DNA of 46,491 nucleotides, taken from Escherichia phage Chlobot. The stretch lies in sequence record PP925838.1; one strand, written 5' to 3'. The notes beneath the pieces were generated by a model. That model was not told the DNA's origin, searched no databases, and saw only the letters and a list, made by a program, of their open reading frames with translations. Below, one piece after another: positions 20,147 through 20,866 of the stretch. Each line of letters opens with the position of its first letter. The first letter of the stretch is position 1. The position numbers and the translations under genes were made by a program.

Positions 20147-20866
20147 ATGTTGATCGTTTCTGTACTACGCTGCGGCAAGGATTTTACGCCGAAACATGCA
20201 CAATGGCTTCATAAACAATTTGGTTCAATGCCCTCAATCTGCTTGACTGATGCTGGAAGTATTGATGGTGTGAATACTGCACCTTTGTTATTTGATTGGC
20301 CTGGTTGGTGGTCAAAAATGGAGTTATTTAACCCAAACCATCCAGTAATCGGGAATCATGACATTTTATATTTTGACATAGATGTTGTCATTACTGGAAA
20401 ATTGGATATTTTTACAAAAGCTAAAAATTTCACCATGCTCAGGGAGTTTAATCATCATGACCGTGTTAACTCCTCAATTATGATGATTCCCGTTTCTGCA
20501 AAGACAAAAATATGGGAGGAATTTACTGCCAATCCTGAACAAATAATGCAAGAATGCAAAACTGAAGATAAATGGGGTGATCAAGGTTTTATCGGTAGTG
20601 TTACTAAGCCAGACTTATGGCAGGACATTATTCCAGATGCAATTAAAAGTTATAAATGCGATATAGCAACAAAATCAATGATTGGATACAATCCAGACCT
20701 GGCATCAAAATCAGCAACTGGGAAAGTACCTGACAGTGTTTCAGTTGTGTGTTTTCACGGTAGTCCACGCCCCTGGCGCACTGGTTTTAACTGGGTTCCA
20801 TCTTTTTCTTTAAAAGATACGCTTTATGGCAAAGTAAAAAATCTCAAATTAAAGGTTAAAGGTTAA
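20147..20866 (+). CDS. Hypothetical protein, possible GT-A-fold glycosyltransferase (239 aa), AT-rich b-region cargo
   Basis: Candidate DxD motif in hydrophobic context (ILYFDIDVVITG); no signal peptide; family assignment not verifiable without a search. Confidence 0.5.
   Translation: MLIVSVLRCGKDFTPKHAQWLHKQFGSMPSICLTDAGSIDGVNTAPLLFDWPGWWSKMELFNPNHPVIGNHDILYFDIDVVITGKLDIFTKAKNFTMLREFNHHDRVNSSIMMIPVSAKTKIWEEFTANPEQIMQECKTEDKWGDQGFIGSVTKPDLWQDIIPDAIKSYKCDIATKSMIGYNPDLASKSATGKVPDSVSVVCFHGSPRPWRTGFNWVPSFSLKDTLYGKVKNLKLKVKG

Follow-up and report, generated by a model that had tools for sequence, protein, structure and literature searches.

What does a lone AT-rich gene do at the edge of a temperate phage genome, between the tail fibre genes and the attachment site, and on what does its product act? 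The question is raised by Escherichia phage Chlobot (sequence record PP925838.1), a lambda/434/ev099-like phage whose 46,491 nt were analysed as one stretch (the window), read opposite to the lambda map orientation. The gene occupies 20147-20866 on the plus strand and, from the list of open reading frames (ORFs) and the sequence, runs from an ATG start through 239 codons to a TAA stop. A preliminary description of the window had pointed to a DxD-like motif in it and proposed, tentatively, a glycosyltransferase (GT) that could modify lipopolysaccharide (LPS), another surface receptor or DNA. The analysis reported here indicates that the product is very probably an active GT8-like glycosyltransferase, and that LPS or surface modification is, as a hypothesis built from sequence, the best supported of those three targets. 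More specifically, the gene may encode a lysogenic-conversion enzyme with the LPS core as its acceptor, a reading to which a probability of roughly 0.4 is assigned.

The enzyme class follows from profile and structure comparisons. The protein matches the PHROG 1962 'glycosyltransferase' profile at E=4e-76, with residues 1-225 aligned to profile positions 1-226 of 230, and tblastn finds P1 pmgQ at 35.9% identity over 92% of the query, which makes the family that of P1 PmgQ and P7 HdmD. Scans of the protein against Pfam (even at E<=10) and NCBIfam gave no match, and a single-sequence phmmer search against the PDB returned noise only. A search of 5.8 billion proteins recovered 390 homologues, all unnamed or 'hypothetical' and free of Pfam domains bar a few PF01973 fusions; PF01501 was precomputed in 0 of 120 homologues among the matches listed. 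With 3,703 clusters at 50% identity and E<=1e-10 among 1.84 billion representatives, this is a large family, for which Pfam has no model. A profile built from 57 homologues reaches solved structures in the PDB, namely Skp1 alpha-GalT (6mw5, E=7.6e-7) and, by this profile only, glycogenin (E=1e-5). The structure model consists of a single Rossmann-like alpha/beta/alpha domain with GT-A topology, whose nearest solved structures are GT8 enzymes, followed by more distant GT-A families. Glycogenin, Skp1 alpha-GalT and GlyE are among the best structural matches, as is the capsid-glycosylating A64R of PBCV-1, and the viral structure predictions matched include 'Glycosyl transferase, family 8' and MptE-like fusions. 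The GT-A-fold nucleotide-sugar transferase suggested in the preliminary description is therefore borne out by the PHROG and profile matches, and a GT-A prediction was obtained from the model as well. This is unsurprising, as the class is already labelled 'glycosyltransferase' in PHROGs and RefSeq.

Within the gene, the following features carry the catalytic assignment (coordinates in the window).

20306..20329, plus strand: WWSKMELF, residues 54-61, with K57 set against the Lys of the GT8 'TKL' motif ('ytKLhiF' of 6mw5)
20375..20383, plus strand: DxD motif, D77-I-D79 in ILYFDIDVV (residues 73-81), predicted to bind Mn2+ and the uridine diphosphate (UDP)-sugar
20576..20584, plus strand: G144-D145-Q146, in register with GDQG of glycogenin-1 and the equivalent of the GT8 catalytic 'DQ'
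20753..20776, plus strand: FHGSPRPW, residues 203-210, set against 'vvhFlGqtKPW' of glycogenin and the equivalent of HxxGxxKPW
20810..20863, plus strand: C-terminal basic helix, residues 222-239, the last 21 residues having a net charge of +5

Conservation was read from the alignment of the 57 homologues, which extends down to 37% identity. Invariant residues are P52, W54, W55, K57, E59, F61, D77, D79, G144, D145 and Q146, followed by S168, K170, F203, H204, G205, P207 and P209, while R208 and W210 are at least 90% conserved. The two aspartates of the DxD motif, encoded at 20375-20377 (D77) and 20381-20383 (D79), come after strand 73-76 in the structure model and are in register with the D-A-D of glycogenin and Skp1 alpha-GalT in the profile alignment. 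Judged by this invariance and register, ILYFDIDVV is no chance motif. In FHGSPRPW, equivalence with GT8 assigns a metal-binding His and a phosphate-binding Lys or Arg, with Arg replacing Lys in most members. The catalytic motif set is thus complete, and the enzyme is presumably a retaining one. No transmembrane segment was found in the protein. The C-terminal helix spans 222-238 in the model, and this tail is kept only in close enterobacterial prophage homologues. It is possible that it serves as a peripheral membrane anchor; an amphipathic anchor was considered and rejected, since other stretches of the protein exceed the helix in hydrophobic moment.

The acceptor was approached through the neighbourhoods of relatives. 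Loci of 160 relatives were fetched, genes were called crudely, and neighbours were clustered and annotated; the GT ORF was recovered in 134 loci, over which the context classes are counted, and one locus may fall in several. LPS-core genes adjoin the GT in 13 of the 134. The closest non-phage relative (49% identity, Pectobacterium, L009) lies in an LPS-core-type cluster together with a GT4, a sulfatase-family PF00884 protein that we infer to be a phosphoethanolamine transferase, a canonical GT8 (PF01501 with GT8C), a WaaZ-like protein, a PmgQ-family GT and a GT25. In a clade with 99% bootstrap, at 38-42% identity to the window protein, the GT gene directly precedes one for a Wzy_C O-antigen ligase; this holds for eight loci of the tree (L014, L015, L016, L019, L021, L022, L026 and L066) from Klebsiella, Raoultella, Rosenbergiella, Erwinia and Morganella. 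L023 has this pairing too, as does L058 from the alphaproteobacterium Martelella, which was not part of the bootstrap set. In one Klebsiella locus (L015, 5977-7872) the GT/Wzy_C pair stands beside waaC, waaF and hldD. These waaL-linked members, named only 'hypothetical protein', are on this evidence probable LPS-core transferases. The first neighbour-joining tree placed the window clade and the waaL-linked clade as sisters, a grouping that was dropped at 10% bootstrap.

Copies with 50-55% identity in Vitreoscilla, Shimwellia and Yokenella form single-gene islands between housekeeping genes, such as rnr / GT / rpoD-dnaG in Vitreoscilla, and no phage genes lie within 6 kb of any of these islands. 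Together with the core-cluster relatives and the survival of the window gene where virion genes have been lost (below), these islands in diverse hosts are the reason for favouring the LPS core as the likely acceptor. The genomic position is also suggestive, as P22 and the Shigella Sf phages classically carry their serotype-conversion genes there, between attP and the tail region.

That position in Chlobot is set out by the features between int and the side tail fibre gene.

18431-19501, plus strand: int
19575-19589, minus strand: lambda attP core GCTTTTTTATACTAA, an exact match with 0 expected by chance
19705-20028, minus strand: second ORF of the interval, 107 aa, overlapping the sib/tI hairpin
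19735-19771, plus strand, with a T-run to 19776: tI/sib hairpin 3' of int, dG -20 kcal/mol, z -4.6, at the position of the HK97 sib annotation
19778..20146, plus strand: non-coding stretch that moves with the GT gene, with block homology to prophages L167 and L172 from 19778/19779
20036-20064, plus strand: weak candidate sigma-70 promoter TAGTCA-17-CATAAT, matching 9/12 of the consensus
20133-20139, plus strand: Shine-Dalgarno-like AGGAAAG, 8 nt 5' of the GT start
20147..20866, plus strand: GT gene, GT8-like (GT-A fold), of the PHROG 1962 / P1 PmgQ / P7 HdmD family
20852..20879, plus strand: heptanucleotide tandem repeat AAGGTTA x4, across the GT stop codon
20885..20910, both strands: strong hairpin separating the convergent GT and tfa genes, dG -20.2/-17.4 kcal/mol, z -4.7/-3.9
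20980-21549, minus strand: tfa, the tail fibre assembly gene, convergent with the GT gene and part of the mobile block, PHROG 105 at E=2e-89
21549-24878, minus strand: stf, the side tail fibre gene, 1109 aa
21549..22148, minus strand: the last 199 stf codons (receptor-binding tip), the right-hand part of the mobile block

From the positions of tfa and attP, the interval between them measures ~1.4 kb here. In lambda it is several kb, and in HK97 tfa almost abuts sib/attP; the GT gene is absent from both HK97 and lambda. The preliminary description of a single AT-rich 239-aa ORF in this interval holds: the gene has 37.6% GC (30.8% at third codon positions) against 50.4% for the window. The 107-aa ORF opposite has no family match in the profile scans, and RefSeq gives part of it either as an incomplete pseudogene named 'capsid protein' or as a hypothetical protein of 80 aa, labels that look like an annotation artefact. 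Since this second ORF amounts to a pseudogene fragment without a family, 'one gene' is essentially right for the interval. A stretch of ~114 nt just 3' of the sib region (19780-19893) is common to 439 complete E. coli genomes. Given the position of the attP core, the GT gene has attP on one side and the tail genes on the other, a site that becomes the prophage end once integrated, and in lysogens the gene adjoins ybhB-bioA.

The repeat and the hairpin at the 3' end of the gene deserve brief comment. AAGGTTA copy number is polymorphic (3 or 4), with three copies in E. coli GDSC2227PM and AJ1. Phase variation through this repeat was rejected, as the stop codon lies inside the first two-and-a-bit copies; both alleles give the same protein, so the repeat is a polymorphic microsatellite with no phase switch. 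The hairpin at 20885-20910 is followed by a U-run on the minus strand, where it forms the late-operon terminator, and lacks one on the plus strand.

Three further observations concern tfa and stf. A full-length match to Rfam RF02111 (IS009; 205 bits, E=1e-51, above the gathering score) at 21008-21206 on the minus strand sits wholly within the tfa coding region; the Rfam family probably represents tfa sequence conserved among cryptic prophages and not a separate RNA gene. The stf shaft (23446-24478, both strands) consists of Ala/Ser/Thr-rich repeats of 60-63% GC and gives rise, in its other frames and antisense, to long spurious ORFs (263-336 aa); in assembly L171 one of them had been called a gene. 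A second 239-aa ORF in L171 was rejected as spurious, since it lies antisense to the Ala/Ser-rich stretch of stf.

The GT gene is rare, and it is mobile together with its neighbours. It was found in 5 of 5,426 complete E. coli genomes, whereas the tfa/Stf-tip type occurs in 3,524. The identical protein is indexed in 1,206 blocks of an assembly collection, and its contexts are lambda-type prophages at the bio-ybhB attB site, a lambdoid prophage with a serine recombinase (L172) and a P2-like myovirus prophage beside smpB (L167). In the last two, a single 2.4-kb block corresponding to window 19778-22148, which comprises the ~370-nt upstream stretch, the GT gene, tfa and the last 199 stf codons, is present at ~89.6% identity (L167, 5633-7985; L172, 5632-7985). 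A further P2-like prophage (L002, 5968-8009) carries the block in two pieces of 84% and 91% identity, again with the GT convergent with tfa. The shared block shows the GT gene to be cargo on a mobile tail-fibre host-range cassette. It is an accessory gene (a moron) and no virion-building gene. Against the 84%-identical copy of L002 the gene has 78 synonymous and 25 non-synonymous differences, a ratio of non-synonymous to synonymous rates (dN/dS) of 0.05, which means strong purifying selection on the ORF.

Prophages at the bio-ybhB attB site are in differing stages of decay, and the terminal 720-nt GT ORF is intact in all that were examined.

L169 (7396-8848): everything from stf to the lysis genes gone; GT intact
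L170 (7098): retained only up to window 21251, with tfa truncated; GT intact
L164 (4194-5666): tfa with an internal stop, stf and J reduced to fragments; GT intact
L165 (4763-7194): J frameshifted; GT intact
L001 (7770-9473) and L173: truncated stf fused to recombination genes; GT intact

Decay at the bio site also includes stf joined to a bet fragment. Because the gene sits at the very end of the prophage, its survival is suggestive and not conclusive.

How the gene might be expressed is constrained by the hairpin upstream of it. The tI/sib structure would stop non-antiterminated read-through into the GT gene, from int in the free phage or from the ybhB side in the prophage. Lying between int or ybhB and the gene, it implies that expression in a lysogen would need a promoter within the co-mobile ~370-nt stretch. 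The candidate there is partly shared with L002, in which upstream homology begins at 20012 by blastn, close alignment holds only from ~100 nt 5' of the ATG, and the -10 hexamer CATAAT is kept. During lytic growth, N-antiterminated pL transcripts could read into the gene, as such transcripts reach the b-region genes of lambda.

The mechanism that these data suggest is that of a soluble, probably membrane-peripheral, metal-dependent retaining GT. The fold is of GT8 type and every motif aligned with the metal, UDP and sugar sites of GT8 is kept (D77/D79, D145-Q146, H204, R208 and K57), and from GT8 chemistry the enzyme would bind Mn2+ and a UDP-hexose (Glc or Gal) and form an alpha-glycosidic bond. 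Its acceptor would be a host envelope glycan, likeliest the LPS core oligosaccharide at the cytoplasmic face of the inner membrane. The added sugar would alter the LPS core of the lysogen and so may change phage adsorption, O-antigen ligation or serum interactions; the phages affected are possibly those that use the co-transferred fibre tip. A host benefit from an altered LPS core would explain why the GT outlives the prophage.

Several points weigh against the LPS-core assignment. We infer the acceptor from gene neighbourhood alone. The window protein misses the Pfam model PF01501 (Glyco_transf_8), and hhalign of the family alignment against the canonical LPS GT8 of L009 gives a probability of 6% over 20 columns round the DxD, so that no direct sequence link to WaaJ-type enzymes was found by this route. 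With no PF01501 match and an hhalign alignment that covers the DxD region only, the enzyme is described as 'GT8-like' and not as a certified GT8. In the neighbour-joining tree the window clade has 49% bootstrap, its grouping with L009 likewise 49% and its join to the waaL-linked clade 10%, and deeper joins lack support. Other branches of the family lie in late or structural operons (27 of the 134 loci in head modules and 15 in P1-like contexts) or beside adhesins. The physical linkage of the window gene with tfa and the Stf tip is also compatible with a role directed at the fibre. The promoter candidate is only a 9/12 consensus match, and the upstream regions of relatives of 73-77% identity do not align with the window. 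A PADLOC scan of the protein returned 0 families at E<=0.01 and hence no known anti-phage defence model, and literature searches found no experimental study of any PmgQ-family member. The Gifsy defence gene gipd474 was considered as a related precedent and rejected, as it encodes an unrelated ATPase-domain protein.

The contexts that diverge from LPS clusters are informative about the family as a whole. In the 27 head morphogenesis loci the order is portal, ClpP-type protease, major capsid, then MptE-like, FkbM/class-I methyltransferase and GT genes, then head-tail connector. These are mostly environmental phage contigs (e.g. L024, L101, L108, L113, L116, L126 and L130) in which the GT is co-directional. 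The GT lies at about 6001-6600 in most of these loci, and MptE/Maf-like and methyltransferase neighbours are often present. The set looks like a capsid-glycan cassette, of which no description was found. The 15 P1-like loci have MptE/Maf-like pmgO and pmgP, then ppp, then pmgQ. In two P1-like plasmid prophages (L045 and L047, 4144-6675) PmgO and PmgP are MptE-like with weak PF01973 matches; PmgO matches PHROG 4603 'alpha-2,3-sialyltransferase' at E=5e-74 and PmgP the same at E=2e-5 only, its main family being PHROG 2111 with function unassigned. With PmgO and PmgP followed by Ppp and PmgQ, the late 'pmg' operon of P1 contains three enzymes that form a putative glycosylation set.

Tail fibre and tfa genes adjoin the GT in 13 of the 134 loci. 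In prophages with a 55%-identity copy (L092, 4808-5804; L093, 4817-5422) and in a Salmonella locus (L004, 6720-7256), the GT is paired with a hexapeptide-repeat (LbH) acyltransferase gene, and the pair is 3' of tail fibre genes. The 55%-identity group adds a 151-aa protein of PHROG 1128 ('enoyl-CoA hydratase/carnithine racemase-like'), so that L092, L093 and L004 carry two or three cargo genes beyond tfa, at the end of the prophage. A search of the complete E. coli genomes found no match to the 55%-identity group (L092). Inverse-autotransporter adhesin genes flank the GT in five of the 134. In Pseudescherichia (L012, 5995-11758; also L013, L018, L025 and L027) the GT and two MptE-like genes flank giant genes for intimin/invasin-type, Big_1-rich inverse autotransporters, which hints at adhesin glycosylation in this lineage. 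The structural-operon and adhesin contexts together imply that the family has more than one acceptor.

The explanation that survives best beside the LPS core is another host acceptor, such as an O-unit, enterobacterial common antigen, a capsule precursor, or an outer-membrane adhesin or receptor protein. It is a possible if somewhat unlikely account. The adhesin-flanking genes of Pseudescherichia fit it, as does the acyltransferase partner in one prophage group; GT8 enzymes take both proteins and glycolipids, and the orphan islands imply some host substrate without saying which. However, the polysaccharide-pathway neighbourhoods that were found are those of LPS-core or O-antigen-ligase genes only. 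Moreover, a single cytoplasmic enzyme at work in hosts as different as E. coli, Salmonella, Citrobacter, Shimwellia and Vitreoscilla needs a widely conserved acceptor, a requirement that the LPS core fits better than strain-specific O units or capsules.

Virion glycosylation is unlikely. Here the enzyme would act on the side tail fibre or on Tfa and affect stability, receptor binding or immune recognition. The GT does travel with tfa and the Stf tip as one block between lambdoid and P2-like prophages, and the counts of tail-fibre-adjacent (13), head-module (27) and P1 late-operon (15) loci given above point the same way. So does the company of MptE/Maf-like proteins and sugar-type methyltransferases in the head modules, and protein-directed GT8s (glycogenin, Skp1 alpha-GalT and GlyE) and the capsid-glycosylating A64R are among the best structural matches. 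Yet the window GT converges on the late operon with a strong hairpin between, and is therefore transcribed separately from stf and tfa. In thousands of genomes this fibre type functions without the GT, and to our knowledge the Stf of lambda has the same Ala/Ser-rich shaft and no such enzyme. The ORF is also intact where stf, tfa or J has been destroyed, and orphan copies of 50-55% identity persist in chromosomes with no phage genes nearby.

A combined account joins the fibre to the host surface. In this coupled cassette, fibre tip, chaperone and enzyme would travel together, and the enzyme would mask the core-sugar receptor or co-receptor of the fibre itself, which we regard as distinctly unlikely. 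Just as doubtful is the extension by which the 2.4-kb segment would be a host-range and exclusion unit exchangeable among lambdoid and P2-like phages, with the wider family forming virion-glycosylation cassettes within head modules of many environmental phages.

It is very improbable that the gene is a functionless hitch-hiker on the tail-fibre cassette. Linkage to the highly mobile tfa/Stf-tip block, rarity and the dispensability of the P1 homologue speak for such a role, but a dN/dS of 0.05, the retention of all catalytic motif residues and an intact ORF beside decayed neighbours are against it.

DNA glycosylation, in which phage DNA bases would be glucosylated as an anti-restriction modification and which the preliminary description had also named, is extremely improbable: the backbone is lambda/434/ev099-type and such phages package ordinary DNA, the top structural matches are all GT8 and neither GT-B (the class of the T4 alpha- and beta-GT) nor JGT/TarP, with motifs that differ, the neighbours of the GT are attP and tail fibre genes (no window-wide scan for hydroxymethylase, 5mYOX or ThyS-like genes was made), and the gene persists in dead prophages and phage-free chromosomal islands. 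Phages do carry DNA glycosyltransferases, some of them GT-A, and the known GT-A enzymes form a separate JGT/TarP-like group with R...DDD...EDY/F motifs, found in clusters for 5-hydroxymethylcytosine or 5-hydroxymethyluracil synthesis (bioRxiv 10.1101/2023.12.21.572611).

If the LPS-core assignment is true, the gene would represent a minimal one-enzyme route to phage-driven surface conversion, unlike the three-component Gtr systems. A conversion enzyme would then move with a host-range determinant, which bears on the prediction of phage susceptibility and serology in E. coli lysogens. It would also be the first function for the 3,703-cluster family, including P1 PmgQ and the waaL-adjacent genes of Klebsiella, Raoultella and Morganella. 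The main value is a clean, testable hypothesis on phage cargo of a fairly ordinary kind.

Among known systems, the nearest in sequence is P1 PmgQ, with P7 HdmD, which belongs to the same family as the window GT at ~36% identity and has the same invariant motifs. In P1 itself pmgQ is dispensable, with no function assigned (PMC10695390). PmgQ is encoded in a late 'putative morphogenetic' operon by the MptE/Maf-like pmgO and pmgP and the Ppp phosphatase, whereas the window GT is solitary convergent cargo by attP and has an extra basic C-terminal helix. The CAZy GT8 enzymes (LgtC, the WaaJ/WaaO/WaaI type, glycogenin, Skp1 alpha-GalT 6mw5/6mw8 and GlyE) resemble the window GT only marginally in sequence; at 239 aa it is shorter and is without the GT8 C-terminal domain PF08437.

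In function, a parallel would be the GtrABC and Oac loci of P22, SfV, SfX and Sf6, which occupy the same genomic slot and by which a temperate phage alters the LPS of its lysogen. Gtr systems use a bactoprenol-linked sugar, the flippase GtrA, the GT2 enzyme GtrB and a periplasmic membrane transferase that acts on the O antigen. The window GT, by contrast, is one soluble GT8-like enzyme, predicted to be cytoplasmic, in an interval without partner genes. A single cytoplasmic transferase encoded on a mobile element and acting on the outer core of E. coli LPS is reportedly exemplified by WabB of pO157, said to have been described by Kaniuk et al. in 2004. WabB is plasmid-borne and of another GT family, and the window GT is known here from its sequence. 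Finally, the virion GTs of mycobacteriophages and chloroviruses target capsid or tail proteins and are expressed together with them, whereas the window GT lies outside the late operon and survives without virion genes.

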